Shown: in pieces, positions 1-7,653 of the stretch
Position numbering within the stretch: the stretch's first letter is position 1
Layout of the letters: every line of letters begins with the position of its first letter
From: Candidatus Latescibacterota bacterium
GTDB taxonomy: Bacteria > Latescibacterota > UBA2968 > UBA8231
Length of the DNA: 64,000 bases
Assembly (NCBI GenBank): GCA_965215195.1
Contig: CBDCDC010000002.1
Location: 1,504,001 to 1,568,000 of the forward strand
Direction of reading: 5' to 3'
Program-made: the position numbers and the translations under genes
Notes under the pieces: generated by a model
What the model was told of the DNA's origin: nothing
The model's database searches: none
The model's input: only the letters and a program-made list of their open reading frames with translations

Positions 1-947
1 GCTGGCTCTACTGGGAGGCGGATACCAAGCTACTCAACGAAAAGCGCCCAGGCTACCGACCGCACGTATTCGACGGAAATATATGGCTGTCTGCCGTTCC
101 GCATCTCAGGAAAGATGCGACGGAGCCGCAGGCATGTATCACGCAACAGATGGCATGTTTGCATCTGATTGAGCGCGGTGCCAACATGTTCCCCGCTTAC
201 CTCCGCGACGACGGCCTCGGAACCGGCAGCAACAAAATACAACGCCGCCCCAACCTGTCCCCTGCCGCACAACGCTATCTCCATCATCTCGGCGCGGACG
301 TAGAGGACCTCTTCCACCACGTCCTCGCCACCCTCCACGACCCCGCCTACCGCCAGGCCAACGCCGGAGCACTCAAGATGGAATGGCCGCGCATCCCGCT
401 GCCGGGCTGGCCCGACGGCAAAGCCGACAGCGCGGCAGAGACGCTCGCTGCATCGGCGGCGCGGGGCCGCGAACTAGCCCGCCTACTCGACCCCGAAGCA
501 CCAGTACCGGGCGTCACCCAAGGCCTGTTGCGCCCGGAGATCGCCGCCCTCGCCGTGCCCGCCACCACCGACAGCCGCAACATGACCGGCGACGATTTCG
601 CGCTCACCGCCGGATGGGGCCACTACGGAACGGGCGACGCCGTAATGCCGGGCCAAGGCCGCATCGTCGAGCGCGAGTACACCCCGGAAGAACGCGCCGC
701 GCTGGGTGCGGCCATACCCACGCTGGGCGAAAAGACGCTGGACGTGTATCTGAACGACCGCGCCTTCTGGCGCAACGTCCCCGCCGCAGTTTGGGACTAC
801 AAGCTCGGCGGCTATCAGGTGCTCAAGAAATGGCTATCCTACCGCGAGAGTGATGTTTTAGGGCGGGTGCTGACGCCGGAAGAAGTGCTGTACTTTGCGG
901 AGACGACGAGGAGGGTTGGGAGGATGTTGCAGGTGACCTATATGTAG
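1..947 (+). CDS. Type ISP restriction-modification enzyme, C-terminal specificity region (5' part outside window)
   Basis: Motifs 'YRQANAGALKMEWPRIPLP' and 'WRNVPAAVWDYKLGGYQVLKKWLSYRE' are typical of the Type ISP (LlaGI/LlaBIII-like) C-terminal domain. The frame is open from the window start. Confidence 0.85.
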   Translation, partial: WLYWEADTKLLNEKRPGYRPHVFDGNIWLSAVPHLRKDATEPQACITQQMACLHLIERGANMFPAYLRDDGLGTGSNKIQRRPNLSPAAQRYLHHLGADVEDLFHHVLATLHDPAYRQANAGALKMEWPRIPLPGWPDGKADSAAETLAASAARGRELARLLDPEAPVPGVTQGLLRPEIAALAVPATTDSRNMTGDDFALTAGWGHYGTGDAVMPGQGRIVEREYTPEERAALGAAIPTLGEKTLDVYLNDRAFWRNVPAAVWDYKLGGYQVLKKWLSYRESDVLGRVLTPEEVLYFAETTRRVGRMLQVTYM

Positions 948-2455
948 TGTCTAAACGGTAAGGGTGGCAGATCGGGAACAGGTGCAGCAGTAAGAATTTC
1001 GCCTACAGCATCAGCAAACTTGAGTGTAACAGGCTGTCCGTCTGCAAACTGGCAGGTATTGAAGTTGATCTTGGTTAGGCCCATCACATCCGTCATAACC
1101 CTGAGCAGATCGGCATGGCCTCTGTGGATTTCGATTAGCAGAGGGTTAGGCACCTCCCAACCAGGATAGGTATCGAGCCGAGGTATAAAACCCTTGGTCC
1201 AAAGATATCCTCTCCGTTTTGTTGAAAGGTATGCAGTACCACGCAACACGGGCATTTTACCCGGTCTATAGAGCTTCAGTTCACTAGTTGGGCGAATACG
1301 CACCCCGACTAGGTTGGTTTCGTTTGAGACGACGCCTCTGAAGCCATCCCACTCATCGTCATTAAATCGCGTTTTGCCATGAATAAAAAGCTCAGTAGGA
1401 GGCTTTCCGTGGAGGTCTCGATATGACTTCACCACTAGACTCATCAACTCAGAGGCTTTCTCTTTGCTAAGGTGAAATTCGTGTGTATCCTTCGAGTACC
1501 AAGGGCCGACGGCACCTCGAAAAACAACGCCATCTCCCGAGTCCAAAAACATTTGAGCACCGCAACAAGCATTGCCGGCGGCTAGGTCGGTACCATCCAT
1601 CTTGTAAACCAATCCTACGTAGCAGACCCCTGGTCGGACCGACGCTAGTTTCCACGGTTTGCCACTGGCCTTAAAGAACGCTGTTGTGCAGAGGTTCCAA
1701 GCAACTGTAGCGGGGTCTTCAGGTTCCCGGATGAAGTGGCCATCTTGAGTGAATCGGTGAGGCGTAAGTGTCGTGTCGCGTACAATCTGAACGACAGCCC
1801 TCATATCTAGAAGGCGAGCTTTCATCTGGTGGTGGAAATTAAGCTCGTAGCGATAAATTTCTGCGGCTTCCCGGTCTTCGGAAAAAAGCGAACCTTCGCG
1901 GAGAATCCGCTTTCCGGTCTCGGGTTTGAAAGGCTGGCTTCCCGTAATGCGTTCTTCCTTGGGTACAACCGACTTAGGTCTGCCATAGGAGTGAACCTCT
2001 TCCGGTATGACAACGAACCACATGGCAGGCGGCGCTTCGTCTTGGCGCAGATACTTGCGTATAGGCTCCTCAAAAAGAGCGACAGTCTTGTATATTGCTT
2101 CGTGCCGGTCAGTGATCCGGATCGAAGTACGGACGGCATTTTCCGAGACTGTTAGTTCGACGAGAGGCTCTTCTGGCCACCGAGTACCAAAAACGGCTTG
2201 GAAGCCAGGCCAACCAGCGTGGTGAGGTTCATTCGGATCCTTGGGCGGAATATAACGTCGAATGGTTTTTGCCCATTCGCGAAAGCAAATCAGACCCTTC
2301 GGCGTCCCAATGACGCCGATACGCATTTCGGCAGGGTTGGCTTTGTCATCTAGGGGACCGAACAAAAAAAGTCCGTCCTTCGGATGCTCCAACGCTTGGC
2401 CGTAGCGGAAGCCTAATCGTGGCTCTTCGATGTGTTGAAGTAACGGATCTGTCAT
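938..2455 (-). CDS. Short prokaryotic Argonaute (MID-PIWI, catalytically inactive), SPARTA clade
   Basis: N-terminal 'IEEPRL.F..GQ...PKDGLFLFGP'; MID motif 'FHHQMKARLL'; 'WNLCTTAFFKASGKPWKL..VRPGVCYVGLVY'; 'CCGAQMFLDSGDGVVFRG'; C-terminal 'PPLPFRHYI'. These closely resemble the Maribacter/Crenotalea SPARTA pAgo as recalled. The RNase H aspartates are replaced (GLVY, IHGK). Confidence 0.95.
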   Translation of the reverse strand: MTDPLLQHIEEPRLGFRYGQALEHPKDGLFLFGPLDDKANPAEMRIGVIGTPKGLICFREWAKTIRRYIPPKDPNEPHHAGWPGFQAVFGTRWPEEPLVELTVSENAVRTSIRITDRHEAIYKTVALFEEPIRKYLRQDEAPPAMWFVVIPEEVHSYGRPKSVVPKEERITGSQPFKPETGKRILREGSLFSEDREAAEIYRYELNFHHQMKARLLDMRAVVQIVRDTTLTPHRFTQDGHFIREPEDPATVAWNLCTTAFFKASGKPWKLASVRPGVCYVGLVYKMDGTDLAAGNACCGAQMFLDSGDGVVFRGAVGPWYSKDTHEFHLSKEKASELMSLVVKSYRDLHGKPPTELFIHGKTRFNDDEWDGFRGVVSNETNLVGVRIRPTSELKLYRPGKMPVLRGTAYLSTKRRGYLWTKGFIPRLDTYPGWEVPNPLLIEIHRGHADLLRVMTDVMGLTKINFNTCQFADGQPVTLKFADAVGEILTAAPVPDLPPLPFRHYI

Positions 2456-4146
2456 ACCCCCTCTTTGTATTCGTTGTCTTTATGGTCGAGAAGATCGTCA
2501 AAATCTGTTTCATCCAAGTCACTGTCGAAATCATCCAGAGCGTCAGCCTCTGTTTCGTCTTCTACATGGTCCTCTTCGGCTGTGGACACTGAGCCATTCT
2601 CAGTAATAGATAGAGGAGCCTCAAAGCCCATCGGAGAAGCGGATATTGTCGCCACGGCGTCGCCGCCAAGGGACAGGTAGAATTCCTCTTTGCCATTTGC
2701 TAGGGCAGCTACGAAAGCGCGAAGCAGGTCGCGCCAACGATCATTCCACCAATTCTTGCAGAAACTCTTTCGTAGGCGACCAGCACGAGATTGGCTATCG
2801 AGCGGCGTTTTGCCATCTTGGGTAAAGACGACGTGAGTACGCAATAGAAGGTGCTGTGGATCTGCAATACTAACCTTTCCCGATACCGCAAAGTGCCAAT
2901 AGACGCCTCTTTTCTCGCTTCGGCCAACCAACCGGCGTCGCCGTTTCTTGCCGTTCTCACCTTGAAAAGTGGCAATGTTTCCTTCGATCAGATCTAGGGG
3001 GACGAACCACGCGCTTCCGTGTGCAAGTTCATAAAGCAATAGACCCTGATTCCGGGCGAATTGTTCCCATGATTGGCGTAGAAGTCCGGTTACTATGTTT
3101 CGAGCATCCAACCACGAGACTTGTGGCCTGTTGGTCTTATGACCATCGAGAAATTGTGCCAATGGAACACGATAAGCGTGCTCAAGTGGAACGTCGGGAG
3201 TCTCCATTTGAAGCGTAGCCGCATCAGCAAAGCTGACGGCCAGCCTCAGATACTGGGTCACGGGACTTTGAAATTCATCAAACGCACGCTTCATAGCCTC
3301 TTGTGACGCATCGAAACGAGAAAAATTGATGTGAGATGGTAGAGAGCTAATTTGAAACCAGTTAGAGAATACTGACTCCGGTGTATCAGAAATGGAGGTG
3401 CTTTGCCGCAGCTTAAAATTTTGCCAAGAAGCCAAGGCTTCTCCGAAATCGCTAGTCAATTGCGGAACCTGGGTGTCTTTGAAAGTCTTCAGAAGTGTGC
3501 TGAATCCGTCCGCCCAGTTAGGAGAGAAGGCGATGGCGTTTAGACGGATCAACTGTTCGGGAAAGTCCGAGAACGGAATATCATCAAGGCGGATAGGTAT
3601 GACGAATTGTTGTTTGTTGAGTTGCCGACCTGTGTTTACAGCAAGAGCAATTTCGTCGAGAACGCCGTCTTTCTGATAAGACGCACGGGATAAGGCAACG
3701 ATGACGACGGCGGCTTCTTTCTTAATCGCATCCCCAATATCTCGCCAGAATGTCTCGCCGCCGAGCAGAGTGAGCACATCTGCCCATACTTCATAGCCAG
3801 CGGCGGTCAATCGTGTGCCTAACCAAGAAGCAAACTCGTTGTCTTCGGGGTTGGCATGGCTGATGAAGACAAGATGTCGTTCGGCTTCCTGGGGCCGGTG
3901 AGGCTTATAGTTATCCTCAATGCCGAGCCAGATGTTTGCGTCAACGCCTAGTACCTTCTCGAACTGTCGTGCCGTCTCCGGCTCAAGAGGGGCTTTTCCA
4001 GAGACGATTTCACTAATCAGCTTGGGAGAGCACCCGCAGAGCCGAGCAAACTCGGCCTGAGAGATACCTTGTACCTCGAGACGCTCCTCCAAAATCCAAC
4101 CCGGCGGGACAGCGTAGTCCGGCCGGTACTGATTGGTCGCCGCCAT
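2452..4146 (-). CDS. HigA-type HTH antitoxin fused to TIR-APAZ (SPARTA NADase effector)
   Basis: aa ~1-81 is a HigA HTH ('PDYAVPPGWILEERLE..GISQAEFA...SPKLISEIVSGKA.LEPETA..FEKVLG'). aa ~90-225 is a TIR domain ('VFISHA.PED.EF..WL...L...GYEVW.D', catalytic Glu in 'GVLDEIALA'). An APAZ domain follows ('KNWWNDRWRDLL') with an acidic C-terminal tail. ATGA overlap with the pAgo start. Confidence 0.92.
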   Translation of the reverse strand: MAATNQYRPDYAVPPGWILEERLEVQGISQAEFARLCGCSPKLISEIVSGKAPLEPETARQFEKVLGVDANIWLGIEDNYKPHRPQEAERHLVFISHANPEDNEFASWLGTRLTAAGYEVWADVLTLLGGETFWRDIGDAIKKEAAVVIVALSRASYQKDGVLDEIALAVNTGRQLNKQQFVIPIRLDDIPFSDFPEQLIRLNAIAFSPNWADGFSTLLKTFKDTQVPQLTSDFGEALASWQNFKLRQSTSISDTPESVFSNWFQISSLPSHINFSRFDASQEAMKRAFDEFQSPVTQYLRLAVSFADAATLQMETPDVPLEHAYRVPLAQFLDGHKTNRPQVSWLDARNIVTGLLRQSWEQFARNQGLLLYELAHGSAWFVPLDLIEGNIATFQGENGKKRRRRLVGRSEKRGVYWHFAVSGKVSIADPQHLLLRTHVVFTQDGKTPLDSQSRAGRLRKSFCKNWWNDRWRDLLRAFVAALANGKEEFYLSLGGDAVATISASPMGFEAPLSITENGSVSTAEEDHVEDETEADALDDFDSDLDETDFDDLLDHKDNEYKEGV

Positions 4147-4160
4147 ACCTCTCTCCTAAG

Positions 4161-4496
4161 TCAGTGATAGTCGATCACATCAACGATCGTAATTGCAGTT
4201 ATCTTTTCCGTGTCAATCCCTCCGTCAGCTTTGCGTGGGAGCGGATCGTGATTGGCTCTGAAAACCAGCCTATAAGGGTGGACGAGATCAACGGCATATT
4301 GCTCGTCGCGATCACCTCGAAGTTGGTGCCTCCGATCTGGTGGGGTCGTAGGCACCAGAGCTAACGTCCGGGCAGCCCTCAGCACGGCGAGACGAATCTT
4401 GATCGTCCTCGCCATGCGGGGACCATACGCCCTCTCAAGTGCGCTAGCTGAGTTGAATTGTTTCTCGATTTTACGGTTCCGAAAGGCGATATCCAA
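4161..4496 (-). CDS. higB: HigB/RelE-family toxin (killer-suppression type)
   Basis: 'MDIAFRNRKIEK...YGPRMA..IK.RL..L.AA..L......P.R.HQL.GDR..QYAVDLVHPYRLVF...IVDVIDYH' is the HigB-like family that precedes HigA. Confidence 0.88.
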   Translation of the reverse strand: MDIAFRNRKIEKQFNSASALERAYGPRMARTIKIRLAVLRAARTLALVPTTPPDRRHQLRGDRDEQYAVDLVHPYRLVFRANHDPLPRKADGGIDTEKITAITIVDVIDYH

Positions 4497-4518
4497 TGCT
4501 CTGTCTCAGCTTGGCGAG

Positions 4519-4549
4519 TTATTCTTAATTATGTTAAGGAATTAATCAA
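4519..4549 (-). promoter_or_regulatory. Candidate promoter and palindromic operator of the higB-higA/TIR-APAZ-pAgo operon
   Basis: AT-rich patch. The minus strand reads TTGATT-N17-AAGAAT and contains the inverted repeat CTTAA-N5-TTAAG (4524-4538). Confidence 0.45.
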
Positions 4550-4594
4550 GGGAAGCAAATGCCGCCATTGGACCCAAGCCTTACACCCTCTCGG

Positions 4595-4633
4595 CTGGTG
4601 GCAAAAATCGACCAGAGAGGACGAGCGTATTGA
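4595..4633 (+). pseudogene. C-terminal remnant of a RelE/ParE-type toxin
   Basis: Reads LVAKIDQRGRAY*, resembling the RelE C-terminal 'V.kIg.R..vY' end. Its TGA overlaps the ATG of the downstream antitoxin-like gene (TGATG). Confidence 0.45.
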
Positions 4634-5019
4634 TGAACGAACAGGATGTGCAGATCGTTGAGAAGGACGGCGAGCCAGAATACGCCGTCGTCCCAATTGA
4701 GGCGTACCGTCGCATGGTTGCCACACTCGAAGACGCGGCCGATGCTGCGGCTATCGCACGGGCATGGGCCGAGGACGCGGCCGGCGAGACGGTCCCGAGC
4801 GAAGTCGTAAAGGCCATTCTCGCGGGCGAATCGCCCTTGCGCGTGTGGCGGAAGCACCGCGAATTCACGTTGGATATGCTGGCCGCGCGAGTAGGGGTCT
4901 CAAAAGGGTATCTGTCGCAGATTGAGAACGGACAGAAGCCCGGGACGCTCGGCCTGTTCCGCCGATTCGCGGGTGTGCTCAATGTGACGCTGGACGAATT
5001 TGCACACCCAACGAACTAA
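4633..5019 (+). CDS. Antitoxin-like XRE HTH regulator with a Phd-like N-terminus
   Basis: 'VQIVEKDGEPEYAVVPIEAY' N-terminus, then 'SPLRVWRKHREFTLDMLAARVGVSKGYLSQIENG' HTH. Confidence 0.8.
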   Translation: MNEQDVQIVEKDGEPEYAVVPIEAYRRMVATLEDAADAAAIARAWAEDAAGETVPSEVVKAILAGESPLRVWRKHREFTLDMLAARVGVSKGYLSQIENGQKPGTLGLFRRFAGVLNVTLDEFAHPTN

Positions 5020-5031
5020 TGGAACCCAACC

Positions 5032-5226
5032 ATGAAAACGTCCCAGCCTGACCCGATCATCGCCGAAGTCCGGGCCGTACGCGACCAACACGCGGCCCGA
5101 TTTGGTTACGACGTCAAAGCAATTTTCAGAGACATTCAAGCCAGACAAGAGGCTTCTGGCCGCCAGTACGTCCGCTATCCTGCCCGCCGCACAGCCCCTG
5201 AGTCCGAGGTTCAGGCGACCCGGTGA
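5032..5226 (+). CDS. Small hypothetical protein (TA-associated type)
   Basis: 'DPIIAEVRAVRDQHAARFGYDV.AI' is a small-protein pattern often found beside PIN toxins. Confidence 0.55.
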   Translation: MKTSQPDPIIAEVRAVRDQHAARFGYDVKAIFRDIQARQEASGRQYVRYPARRTAPESEVQATR

Positions 5227-5227
5227 G

Positions 5228-5351
5228 GCCGGGTCAAGGTCGCATCGTCGAGCGCGGGTACAGTCCAGACGAACGCACCCCGCTGGGCGGAAATATGCTA
5301 TCTCGGCGGCTACCAAGTCCTCAAGAAATGGCTACCCTACCGCGAATGTGA
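5228..5351 (+). repeat. Degenerate direct copy of the Type ISP 3' end (matches 647-706 and 804-853)
   Basis: gccgggtcaaggtcgcatcgtcgagcgcgggtac matches 647 onward. ctcggcggctaccaagtcctcaagaaatggctaccctaccgcgaatgtga matches 804-853. Confidence 0.85.
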
Positions 5352-5393
5352 ATCGGCTACGTATTGACGCCGATATTTGCAAACGCCGTTAGA

Positions 5394-5611
5394 TCAATTG
5401 CCGAGTAGATCAATAAATGCCTCTCGGTCAATCCCGACATCTCTCTGAATCTTGGACATAAGGCCAACGCCGTTCGTTTCACCGCCATGAATGGGCACAA
5501 CCGTGCTCCGCCCATCGGGGTGCTTCATAATCGTTGCCTCACAAGCTCGAAACCGACTTTCGGCAGAGATCGGACCACATGGGCTCCCGTCACGCACGGC
5601 ATTCTGTTCAT
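5394..5611 (-). pseudogene. hicA: HicA toxin, frameshifted
   Basis: Frame 1 reads MNRMPCVTGAHVVRSLPKVGFELVRQR then stops. Frame 2 continues IMKHPDGRSTVVPIHGGE...IQRDVGI. The GSH motif is missing at the junction. Confidence 0.8.
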
Positions 5612-5820
5612 ACGGATATTCTTTGAATGCCCACCAGTTCAAGCGGATTCGGAGCCTCTTCGCCCTCAACTTCAAGCCAGAGTGCGATCACCTCCTGCAT
5701 CCGTTCGAATAACTGGTCAATTGACTTTCCTTGAGTATGACAGCCCGGAAGGCCGGGGACACTCCCAACGTAATAACCGTCTTCATCTTTCTCGATGACG
5801 ATAGTGTATTCAGTACTCAT
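5608..5820 (-). CDS. hicB: HicB-family antitoxin
   Basis: 'YTIVIEKDEDGYYVGSVPGLPGCHTQGKSIDQL..RMQEVI.LWLE'. Confidence 0.88.
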   Translation of the reverse strand: MSTEYTIVIEKDEDGYYVGSVPGLPGCHTQGKSIDQLFERMQEVIALWLEVEGEEAPNPLELVGIQRISV

Positions 5821-5836
5821 TGGATTCATCTGCCAC

Positions 5837-6070
5837 CTATACAAACTCAAGCACTGTTTTGCCGTGAATTTTGCAGGGAAGAGAGGCGGTTGTGTCGTCT
5901 GCAACGCCGTTCAGACGCAGCAATTCCGGCACCATACTACGCGCCTCCTCAATTATACCGTCGAGAGTGTCCGCTTCGAGGACTAGACCCGGCACCTCGT
6001 CACTGGTGGCAACCCACACGTTTGCTTGGGGATCCCACGCCGAATCAATAATGATTTCCCTAACGGCCAT
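5837..6070 (-). CDS. DUF1902 (HicB-like) protein
   Basis: 'AWDPQANVWVATSDEVPGLVLEADTLD.......MVPELL'. Confidence 0.8.
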   Translation of the reverse strand: MAVREIIIDSAWDPQANVWVATSDEVPGLVLEADTLDGIIEEARSMVPELLRLNGVADDTTASLPCKIHGKTVLEFV

Positions 6071-6141
6071 ATTGCGCCTTCTTTTTTGCTAGTCGCAAGA
6101 TAACATCCTCCCAATTCGCATCGCTATACTCAATCCCCTTC

Positions 6142-7653
6142 TCACCGGACCTCCGAGCGCAAAACCTCCATCTCCAGCACCATATCCGGGTCCAGCGGAA
6201 AAAAGGGCCGCGCCCGCCGCACAAAGGGCAGGTGCCGCACGGTCGCCGGCGTCGGTCCCAGGGTGTCGAGCACAAAAACGGCTTGGGCCATAGCTCCGTA
6301 AGCGAGGCGGTAGTTCATGGGATTCTTGGCGACGATAAAGCGCGCACGCGCCGCGTCCATTCCGAGGGCCGCAAACTGCTCGCCATCCCATTCGTACGTA
6401 GGATGCGACGCCAACAGCACCTGTATCGGTCCCAGCGCGAGCACGGCCGCCGGCCCCATCTGCCCTTCGACCCCCTCCCAGATACCGCCCCGATAGCGGA
6501 AGCGACCATCGCTCAACCGCAGCACCCGACCGCGCACGGCGATTGGCTGTCCCCAACGCGGGTCGTGCCCGTGTCCCAGCACCAACTCCACCTCGGCCCC
6601 GACACCGGCCTGATGGCAGGCCGCGGCCGCACGGGCATCGACCAAGGGCACCAGCGCCGGGCCGTCCAACTCGGCCTGCAACAGAGCCGCTAGCCCCGCC
6701 ACGCTATCGCCAGCCGCGCCGCCACCGCAGCAGTCCGCAGCCTCCACCAGCACCACCGGGCCGCCCTCGACGGCCAAGCCGGTGCGCACGGCCTCTGCGG
6801 GTGCGTACAGCTCTGGCTCTAAGGCAAAGCGCCGCTCCCAGTACGCCGCAGCCAGCTCGCGGGCGAGTGCTTCGGCCTTGGCAAAGTCGCCGTCGGCAAT
6901 CGCCAGCCCGCCGCTGCCCATGCCGGCAAAATCGAGGTAGGGATGCACCAAGATCGCACTCGTCGAGAGGATGCCGTCGCGCTGCTCAGCGGCCTTGGCC
7001 AAGGCCATCACTTGCGCGAAAGGGTCGTCGTCCTCGGTCGAGCCGTGAATGGCCCCGGTGAGCACCGGCACCTTGGCCATGGCCATCGCGGGCTTGCACG
7101 CGCCAGCGAGCGCGTCGCACAGCAGGCGCGCCCCGCGCACACCCGTGGAAAAAGCATCGCGATGCGGATAGGTTTCCCAAGCTACCAAGCCATCGGCAGC
7201 GCGCATCATTTGCGCGGAAATATGGGCGTGTAAATCGAGCGTGGCGACGATGGGCACGGCCTCGCCGACGACCGCTCGCACCGAGGCCAGCAAATCCCCC
7301 TCCAAATCGACGCCGCCCTCTACGGCCGCCGCCCCGTGCAGCGGCATGAGGACTCCATCTACCGGGAGCACCGCGTTGAGCCGCGCCAAAAGCTCTTCCT
7401 TGAGCTGGTTGTAACAAGCCCGCGTCAGCGGACCGCCGGGGCAGGTGCTGGCAAACAACAGGGGCGCAACTTGCGCACCGCGCGCCGCCAGCACCCTGAG
7501 CATACCCCCAACCACCCCGTCTTCGGCTGCGAGCACCTCGCACCCGCGCCGCAGCTCATAGCGCTCAAACCACGACAGATCAATCGGCTCGCCGCCGAAT
7601 TGATTGCATTCGGTAAAAATCGCACCCAAGGCTACGCGCTGTTTGGCAACCAT
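6142..7653 (-). CDS. M81/MlrC-family metallopeptidase
   Basis: 'ECNQF', 'LHGAA', 'LDLHAH', 'YPHRD' and 'ADCCGGG' motifs. Confidence 0.88.
   Translation of the reverse strand: MVAKQRVALGAIFTECNQFGGEPIDLSWFERYELRRGCEVLAAEDGVVGGMLRVLAARGAQVAPLLFASTCPGGPLTRACYNQLKEELLARLNAVLPVDGVLMPLHGAAAVEGGVDLEGDLLASVRAVVGEAVPIVATLDLHAHISAQMMRAADGLVAWETYPHRDAFSTGVRGARLLCDALAGACKPAMAMAKVPVLTGAIHGSTEDDDPFAQVMALAKAAEQRDGILSTSAILVHPYLDFAGMGSGGLAIADGDFAKAEALARELAAAYWERRFALEPELYAPAEAVRTGLAVEGGPVVLVEAADCCGGGAAGDSVAGLAALLQAELDGPALVPLVDARAAAACHQAGVGAEVELVLGHGHDPRWGQPIAVRGRVLRLSDGRFRYRGGIWEGVEGQMGPAAVLALGPIQVLLASHPTYEWDGEQFAALGMDAARARFIVAKNPMNYRLAYGAMAQAVFVLDTLGPTPATVRHLPFVRRARPFFPLDPDMVLEMEVLRSEVR

Follow-up and report, generated by a model that had tools for sequence, protein, structure and literature searches.

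Analysis of a 64,000-nucleotide (nt) stretch of a Candidatus Latescibacterota bacterium genome (GenBank assembly GCA_965215195.1, contig CBDCDC010000002.1, positions 1,504,001 to 1,568,000 of the forward strand; hereafter the window, whose coordinates are used unless another locus is named) revealed an operon in which an antitoxin domain of the HigA type, built around a helix-turn-helix (HTH), is fused in frame to the TIR-APAZ subunit of SPARTA, a defence system with a short prokaryotic Argonaute (pAgo), directly behind a gene for a HigB-like toxin. The HTH::TIR-APAZ fusion is real and has a single shared junction, and all three genes of the operon are under purifying selection. The reading put forward here, that the resulting protein of 564 amino acids (aa) is bifunctional, serving both as the antitoxin partner of HigB and as the NADase subunit of a working SPARTA, is given about an even chance of being right.

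The operon comprises three co-oriented minus-strand open reading frames (ORFs), namely a higB-like gene (4496..4161, 111 aa, TTG start), the fusion gene (4146..2452) and the gene of the short pAgo (2455..938, 505 aa). The 14-nt spacer between the first two (4147..4160, minus strand, CTTAGGAGAGAGGT) holds an AGGAG ribosome-binding site ahead of the ATG of the fusion, so that a weak TTG start for higB stands against a good ribosome-binding site for the fusion; the stop of the fusion and the start of pAgo share the sequence ATGA, a 4-nt overlap. The packing of the genes, with its 14-nt gap and ATGA overlap, had been read from the letters in a preliminary description of this DNA, and the ORF coordinates agree with it exactly.

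The head of the fusion (codons 1-88, 3883..4146, minus strand) matches Pfam HTH_3 at residues 21-70 (E 3e-8), the TIGR02607 HigA model at residues 13-80 (E 7e-11, 41.8 bits, which lies under the cut-off of 47.7) and the HigA structure 2icp of the Protein Data Bank (E 4e-7). It is followed by a TIR NADase domain (residues 89-219, 3490..3882, minus strand; TIR_2 at residues 93-219, E 1e-20), an APAZ domain (residues 220-519, 2590..3489, minus strand) and an acidic C-terminal tail (2452..2589, minus strand, stop codon included), in which 21 of the last 45 residues are D or E. Residues 89-536 together match the PADLOC model Aga_TIR-PNTD1-PNTD2 (E 9e-145), and the TIR-APAZ part can be aligned with solved SPARTA chains (8qlo_A, E 5e-67; 8fex_A, E 2e-63) from query residue 90, which corresponds to chain residue 2-4. 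There is no in-frame ATG, GTG or TTG in codons 19-110, which means that TIR-APAZ can only be made as part of the fusion and which rules out an internal start giving a separate TIR-APAZ protein. Thus, the earlier statement that an intact HigA-type HTH is obligatorily joined to TIR-APAZ is borne out.

The short pAgo (938..2455, minus strand, MID-PIWI) matches the PADLOC model pAgo_I of class I short pAgos (E 2e-212) and 8ifk_B over residues 7-505 (E 7e-132). For MapSPARTA, the relevant part of PMC10355822 gives H207, K211, Q222 and K263 as the MID pocket for the guide 5'-phosphate and E77 as the TIR glutamate. In the alignments, E165 of the fusion is the equivalent of the catalytic E77 and is predicted to be catalytic as well, and H208, K212, Q223 and K262 of pAgo fall on the four pocket residues, with R226 and T229 likewise present; the MID residues were placed by counting along the 8ifk_B alignment in MapSPARTA numbering, and 8ifk_B is not necessarily MapSPARTA. 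The TIR glutamate, the MID H...K pair and the acidic APAZ tail, all named in the preliminary description, are therefore retained. An acidic C-tail is described as an auto-inhibitor of CrtSPARTA in the portion of bioRxiv 10.1101/2023.07.12.548734 that deals with it. SPARTA itself, a short pAgo with a TIR-APAZ protein assigned to clade S2A, was introduced by Koopal et al. 2022 (PMC9097488, in the sections concerned), and the window resembles it in the gene pair, the gene order and the overlapping stop and start, as well as in a TIR-APAZ alignable from residue 2-4 to its end with catalytic glutamate, MID pocket and acidic tail kept. It differs by the HTH head in front of the TIR domain and by higB as a third gene of the operon.

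The position of the junction could be defined from sequencing-run contigs. Position 3882 is spanned without any difference by contigs of three such runs, each from a different study (X1, record 8, 3820-4650; X5, record 20, 3770-4107; X6, record 28, 3778-3987), and X1 may be the sample from which the window was assembled. Contigs of unfused alleles, which end loosely in X1 and X12, agree with the window up to 3882 and then diverge; on the gene strand they read ATG-CAA and then GAA-CG..., and unfused relatives start MK/Q-ERRLVFISHAN. This divergence and the unfused ATG-CAA-GAA start place the breakpoint between A88 and E89 (3880..3885, minus strand), so only the first two TIR-APAZ codons were lost at fusion and the 88-residue head stands in their place. 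In run X1, unfused alleles occur together with the fused one.

The same junction recurs elsewhere. Among the best 120 proteins listed in a search with the fusion, 12 clusters (P0001-P0012; 557-569 aa, 83-100% identical, with 40 members drawn from ENA, Logan, JGI and NCBI) have the head and the identical junction, ...PQEA followed by ERHLVFISHAN; the other 108 are head-less, the closest of them (P0013) being 90% identical. The full fusion was found in four of the 61 genomes searched (G000, G007, G020 and G028), all from the window's genus, of which 31 genomes were available, and in the three genomes besides the window's the frame is open over 567-572 aa with no stops. The preliminary description had left room for a misassembly or a stop at the HTH-TIR junction and for a fusion without homologues; the three bridging runs, the 12 protein clusters and the three further genomes rule out a misassembly or frameshift and supply the homologues. 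Two further genomes of the genus have a close unfused form, and one has the gene split: at L007/L034 (4663-5507), an insertion of about 840 base pairs (bp) with transposase-like ORFs interrupts TIR-APAZ in one genome of the genus. Both higB and the head are present in three of 29 related loci from genome contigs, all titled Candidatus Latescibacterota bacterium.

The identity of the first gene (4161..4496, minus strand) would be a weak point if judged from its single sequence alone, which reaches Pfam HigB-like_toxin only at E 0.0096 and 16.8 bits (under the cut-off of 27) and has no PADLOC or NCBIfam match. A search of the protein library found 1464 representative relatives with an E value of 0.001 or less, 501 of them with 1e-10 or less, from which an alignment of 61 rows was built (58 full-length representatives from the best 150 listed, plus the copies of the window and of two loci of another type, L009 and L011). 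In this alignment the C-terminal H111 is invariant and H57, R76 and D109 are near-invariant, and the window's copy keeps all family-conserved residues. The profile of these 61 relatives matches GraT (6f8s, E 2.4e-8) and Proteus vulgaris HigB (4mct, E 5.8e-6), with the terminal D-Y-H aligned in both, and PF05015 is matched by 38 of the 61 (E 0.01 or below). In P. vulgaris HigB, catalysis is presumably carried out by the D-Y-H and the central histidine. A confident AF2 model (pLDDT 96.4) was closest in Foldseek to ribosome-bound and free P. vulgaris HigB (TM 0.74-0.79, target-normalised), followed by YoeB, RelE and YafQ, giving the gene product the fold of a RelE/HigB RNase-type toxin. At 111 aa vs 92-98, it is longer than canonical HigB owing to an insert of about 20 residues, and the TTG start is unchanged in six loci. 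On the strength of the profile of relatives, the fold model and the fold search, the window's small first gene belongs to the HigB family.

Modelling supports binding of HigB to the HTH head. The predicted complex of HigB with fusion residues 1-92 had a median ipSAE of 0.86 over three runs, vs 0.07 for the best of three controls; of 80 solved complexes, 58 attain that mark, as do two of 110 mismatched pairs, a calibration that holds only roughly because custom alignments were used. At least 95% of contacts agree between runs and the partners have pLDDT of at least 91. The predicted interface is formed by residues 4-26 and 67-79 on the side of the head and by residues 2-17 and 30-53 on that of HigB, and thus excludes the conserved H57, R76 and D109-H111. 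Residues 1-230 of the fusion were modelled as two folded domains (mean pLDDT 73.9), with the linker at 78-88 (pLDDT below 50) and the first 15 residues at low confidence, suggesting a head tethered to the TIR domain by about 11 flexible residues and an N-terminal segment that probably becomes ordered only upon HigB binding. A rigid coupling of head and TIR was dropped, this model having no confident inter-domain arrangement.

Evolutionary constraint was examined by pairwise Nei-Gojobori estimates among the four fused genomes. For higB, the ratio of non-synonymous to synonymous substitution (dN/dS) lies at 0.08-0.20 in seven pairs out of nine, each of which compares two of the more distant genomes. 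The corresponding ranges are 0.10-0.23 (head), 0.17-0.23 (TIR-APAZ) and 0.15-0.17 (pAgo), and the counts behind the values for higB and head are small (1-8 non-synonymous and 0-17 synonymous differences). For the closest pair, L014 and L015, the full higB gene gives 0.51 (five non-synonymous and three synonymous differences) and codons 1-73 give no value, as dS is 0 there. Among the more distant genomes, dS of higB and head is about 0.2 and lower than that of TIR-APAZ (0.31-0.55).

Under the bifunctional reading, one recombination event between A88 and E89 would have joined the head to TIR-APAZ, the matching higB gene coming along. HigB would be a translation-dependent RNase held in check by the head, and the tail of the fusion and pAgo would recognise DNA targets through the RNA guide, form tetramers and deplete NAD(P)+ in the manner of canonical SPARTA. 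With antitoxin and NADase in one polypeptide from one operon, the cassette would be addictive in a slot of frequent exchange, and whenever the fusion is removed, degraded or remodelled, HigB would become free as a second, RNA-directed effector. Additions in front of TIR-APAZ have precedents, both in the PADLOC model Aga_REase-TIR-PNTD and in the natural Mrr-TIR-APAZ mentioned in the part of PMC9097488 on such proteins.

A number of observations weigh against this reading. The distribution is narrow (four of the 31 genomes of one genus), and the fusion is absent from the other 137 genomes of the phylum and from 26 of the 29 related SPARTA loci. Nor is the fused state fixed: in a quick tree of TIR-APAZ (65 rows, P0001-P0066 without P0051, which is under 440 aa), 11 of the 12 fused rows form one clade within which the unfused P0018 is nested, the remaining one, P0002, pairs with the unfused P0014, and well-supported branches force at least two changes of state, which implies either recombination between head and tail alleles or one or more losses of the head. 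One nucleotide is missing from a C run of higB in L013 (2361-2364 of that locus), the gene being intact in the other three of the four genomes; beyond the deletion the sequence is otherwise conserved up to the DYH-stop, as it would be if the deletion is very recent or stems from an error of assembly. At the same locus the last residues of the fusion differ (…YEEGIYDRFVTPTH), for which an error of a short-read metagenome-assembled genome (MAG) or a recent lesion is possible. Purifying selection on the head would also result from the toxicity of HigB alone. The score of the HigB-head complex may stem from the resemblance of the pair to HigB-HigA complexes already solved (4mct, 6f8s), and the HTH-TIR linker is predicted to be flexible, so that no rigid coupling is expected.

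Transcriptional autoregulation by the head, one of four possible logics put forward in the preliminary description, is also doubtful. No inverted repeat was found in 4480-4660 upstream of higB, the palindrome of related loci is missing and two HTH arginines are replaced. The palindrome in question, TTACCTAT(C/T)AGGTAA, is perfect and lies just upstream of higB at two loci in which the HTH is fused to a peptidase (L009 and L011, 2140-2160 in each), where it is likely the operator of that family; it is absent from the four fused loci. The replaced residues are two consensus arginines beside the recognition helix (R36L and R39C in the head). The region upstream of higB (4497..4629, minus strand), a probable promoter alike in the four fused loci and shared with a divergent HTH gene at 4630, has no sigma-70-like site, the only such site lying inside higB, and sites were fewer than in shuffled sequences. 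As to expression, the only RNA-library contigs that aligned, from run X12, are 90-95% alike over pAgo and TIR-APAZ (window 900-3882) and leave the window exactly at 3882, with none over 3924-4650; their divergence there means that they belong to an unfused relative and have no bearing on expression of the fused operon. That unfused relative may be transcribed in X12, carry-over of DNA being possible.

The genomic setting gives further weight to a rival explanation. Judged by gene content, the locus is a cassette-swapping slot, with recurrent flanks consisting of an M81 peptidase gene, HicB/HicA remnants, a 129-aa HTH protein and vapC on one side vs a convergent Type_ISP_C gene on the other, which abuts or overlaps the end of the cassette. 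The slot holds higB, the fusion and pAgo in the window and in L013-L015; unfused SPARTA in L017, L018, L019 and L034; and an AlbA_2 gene in L043 and L045 (both flanks) and in L042, L044 and L046 (one flank in the stretch examined). Genome G020 has two such islands, one per cassette type. In two genomes, at L019 (3718-3996) and L034 (3720-3954; also L006, 1221-1490), unfused SPARTA follows within a few bases of a vapC gene that breaks off at about residue 89-93 of its 168, the cassette junction having destroyed this PIN toxin gene, so that junctions in this slot need not be adaptive, which again counts against a functional coupling.

Such a slot makes a tolerated accident a serious rival, and one that we consider rather unlikely but worth weighing in full: a SPARTA cassette would have entered a higA-type gene in its 3' part by recombination, the fusion would be a by-product of cassette exchange, the junction would do no more than provide TIR-APAZ with signals for transcription and translation (promoter, ribosome-binding site, start codon), and the toxin-antitoxin part, of no use to defence, would be decaying or persist solely as a selfish addiction element. 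The variable content of the slot (fused SPARTA, unfused SPARTA or AlbA_2 in different genomes), the destructive junctions at vapC in L019 and L034 and the unfused alleles coexisting in run X1 with loose ends at 3882 are all consistent with this account, as are the signs of decay or turnover, namely the frameshift in L013 higB, the reversion of P0018 to the unfused state and the loss of the palindrome and of the two HTH arginines. The fusion is also narrow and recent, with a dS of about 0.2 for higB and head. What speaks for function instead is that higB is constrained (dN/dS 0.08-0.20 in seven of nine pairs, 0.51 in L014-L015) with its family residues kept, that it is intact in three of four genomes, the L013 lesion looking recent or artefactual, and that the head has been re-used in frame on a second, unrelated protein.

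This re-use came to light when the origin of the head was traced. A search with residues 1-90 against proteins of 310-987 aa gave 864 matches at E up to 0.001, and the best 120 of these comprised the 12 SPARTA fusions, four AlbA_2 clusters and 104 proteins of 318-374 aa, 103 of which contain Peptidase_M78 (ImmA/IrrE) behind heads 73-85% identical to the window's. From genomes of the phylum, 16 loci were taken (11 intact HTH-peptidase loci, one decayed locus and four with stand-alone HTH genes). At all 11 intact loci a HigB-like gene, its product 37-78% identical to the window's, lies directly upstream on the same strand; no such gene was found at the decayed locus or at the other four, whose stand-alone HTH genes are of weak similarity only. 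The PADLOC model PD-Lambda-2_B is matched by the HTH-peptidase relative P0125 (E 4e-37) and, with the HTH part only, by the window's fusion (residues 21-87, E 0.0012). By sequence comparison, the head is that of a widespread module of HigB and an HTH-ImmA/IrrE peptidase related to PD-lambda-2.

It had been proposed earlier that HigB/HigA pairs of this type usually carry an ImmA/IrrE peptidase on HigA and that here the peptidase was swapped for the SPARTA effector. The listed proteins and the intact loci agree with the first statement. The swap is less certain: in the size class below 310 aa there are stand-alone HigA proteins (81-110 aa) that, at 70-85% identity to the head, come about as close as the peptidase fusions do, so that a peptidase may or may not have been part of the direct ancestor. 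No precursor state, with a separate higBA pair ahead of an unfused SPARTA cassette, was found at the closest loci of that kind, where an oxidoreductase-like gene, or vapC (either whole or truncated), lies upstream.

Apart from TIR-APAZ and the peptidase, the head was found on other tails. In the four AlbA_2 clusters (P0121-P0124; 538-542 aa, 28 member sequences), heads 91-93% identical to the window's are joined in frame to a Schlafen/AlbA_2 protein of about 450 aa. The junctions read ...QEAERH-FDY-M, ...ERP-LDY-M, ...ERHL-AF-M and ...ERHL-DY-M, then continue into the native AlbA_2 start (unfused AlbA_2 proteins begin MASREDL), and their E-R-H(-L) equals TIR-APAZ codons 3-6 behind the A88-E89 breakpoint. 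The retained ERH(L) implies that the AlbA_2 fusions were derived from the SPARTA fusion by replacement of the SPARTA genes downstream. Their heads are closest to different SPARTA heads, that of P0122 differing at 1 of 88 positions from those of P0003 and P0012 and that of P0121 at 2 from that of P0006. Loci with HTH::AlbA_2 were not found in the 31 genomes of the genus or the 168 of the phylum, and a metagenome scan for them returned four loci, all unfused distant relatives. In another architecture (P0402, P0425 and P0447; 254-275 aa), heads 77-81% identical to the window's precede a predicted membrane segment and a Sel1 repeat. The occurrence of several unrelated tails makes the head a promiscuous N-terminal module.

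It is possible, and on our estimate unlikely, that HigB and the handle of about 88 residues form a portable control module, placed on the peptidase, on TIR-APAZ with pAgo, on AlbA_2 and perhaps on Sel1 proteins. HigB would then restrain the effector and the effector-borne head would restrain HigB, a two-way lock, and either TIR tetramerisation upon SPARTA firing or phage destruction of the fusion would release an mRNA-cleaving toxin along with NAD+ depletion, a two-pronged abortive response through one polypeptide.

The preliminary description took HigB to be the toxin. The roles of toxin and antitoxin may even be inverted here, given that the toxicity of PD-lambda-2 lies in its HTH-peptidase. 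In PD-lambda-2, the one relative with experimental data, described in Escherichia coli by Vassallo et al. 2022 (PMC9519451), a HigB-like protein is accompanied by a HigA-type HTH fused to a peptidase and by a P4 antitoxin-like component that defence requires; the part of that paper concerned with its toxicity reports that the HTH-peptidase alone is toxic and that the HigB-like protein rescues. By analogy, the window's HigB-like protein would be a safety catch on the HTH handle, holding a toxic effector inactive until a trigger dislodges the catch; we regard this as quite improbable. The PD-Lambda-2_B match of head relatives, the occurrence of the head on at least three different tails and the NAD+ hydrolysis by TIR-APAZ alone given in the pertinent portion of bioRxiv 10.1101/2023.07.12.548734 would fit such a role, and in the models the HigB site on the head is no more than about 11 residues away from where the TIR domain begins its first strand. 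However, SPARTA is already restrained by both pAgo and the acidic tail, the linker is predicted to be flexible, the conserved HigB residues of catalytic type would be needless in an inert inhibitor, and no HigB-like protein from the window, L009 or L011 matches the PADLOC model PD-Lambda-2_A, with E values as high as 10 allowed.

An artefact of assembly or annotation, with two genes wrongly joined or a frameshift hidden, is scarcely credible, since no positive sign of it was seen other than the metagenome-type assembly with 8.5% estimated contamination, and three bridging runs, 12 clusters and three other open frames stand against it.

Of the two anchors of the slot in the window, the right-hand one is the convergent gene with a Type_ISP_C domain (3..947, plus strand; Pfam Type_ISP_C, E 1.8e-29), whose end overlaps that of pAgo. 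The left-hand one is the divergent gene of the 129-aa HTH_3 protein (4630..5019, plus strand), which is followed by HicA/HicB and the M81 peptidase and recurs beside alternative cassettes; the related flank region spans 4630-7653. At 5394-6070, HicA-like, HicB-like and DUF1902 ORFs overlap one another beside the slot, and HicB fragments beside the cassettes of related genomes suggest repeated rearrangement of toxin-antitoxin genes. The G+C content of the module is 0.50-0.58, vs 0.618 for the window and 0.64-0.67 for the flanking genes. SPARTA cassettes with TIR-APAZ 71-79% and pAgo 82-86% identical were also found in MAGs titled Entotheonella, Binatia and Rhodothermales (L018, L020, L024 and L031), which points to cassette exchange between lineages and suggests transfer between phyla or mis-binning. 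The Entotheonella-titled locus has vapC and Type_ISP_C flanks as well.

Several elements of this system have known counterparts. Like the HigB plus HTH-peptidase modules, the window has a TTG-start HigB-like gene directly upstream, with a head 73-85% and a HigB 37-78% identical to theirs. Unlike PD-lambda-2, it lacks Peptidase_M78, with TIR-APAZ and the pAgo gene in the peptidase's place, and unlike the peptidase-type loci, the fused loci are without the palindrome upstream of higB. With canonical HigBA (P. vulgaris HigBA and Pseudomonas putida GraTA) it shares the toxin-first order, the HigB fold, D-Y-H, an HTH domain of HigA type and a predicted toxin-head complex; it differs in that its putative antitoxin is the N-terminus of a 564-aa enzyme subunit and no small free protein, and in the insertion of about 20 residues in HigB. 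The Mrr-TIR-APAZ of the SPARTA literature, as treated in the corresponding part of PMC9097488, bears a nuclease domain, whereas the window's addition is a domain of antitoxin type. PF01381 HTH domains and PF04326 are reported to recur in pAgo operons, some of them fused to long-B pAgos, in the section of Ryazansky et al. 2018 (bioRxiv 10.1101/366930) on operon partners; unlike those fusions, so far as that section covers them, the window's partner is the TIR-APAZ of a short-pAgo system accompanied by a HigB toxin gene. SPARTA, Mrr-TIR-APAZ and the HigB plus HTH-peptidase module are thus already known, and what is apparently new is the HigA-type head on TIR-APAZ together with higB; no published HigA/HTH-TIR-APAZ fusion with a HigB gene was found, and supplementary lists of TIR-APAZ proteins (e.g., in Koopal 2022) may hold such cases.

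SPARTA has been seen as a self-contained sensor and effector of two proteins, and toxin-antitoxin modules as separate devices of abortive infection. Here the two are joined, and the join is kept under selection in several species. Even if it is merely tolerated, the locus records the exchange of defence cassettes at one fixed site of the chromosome and shows that antitoxin domains can turn into N-terminal tags of defence enzymes, and TIR-APAZ appears to accept an N-terminal domain, which may be useful in engineering SPARTA-based detection tools. Should the head prove to be a portable module, one HTH handle would serve unrelated toxic effectors. If the coupling is functional, a guide-directed sensor would control a second, RNA-directed effector, and the fusion would offer a handle on the HigB/HTH-peptidase family of the PD-lambda-2 type and its mechanism.

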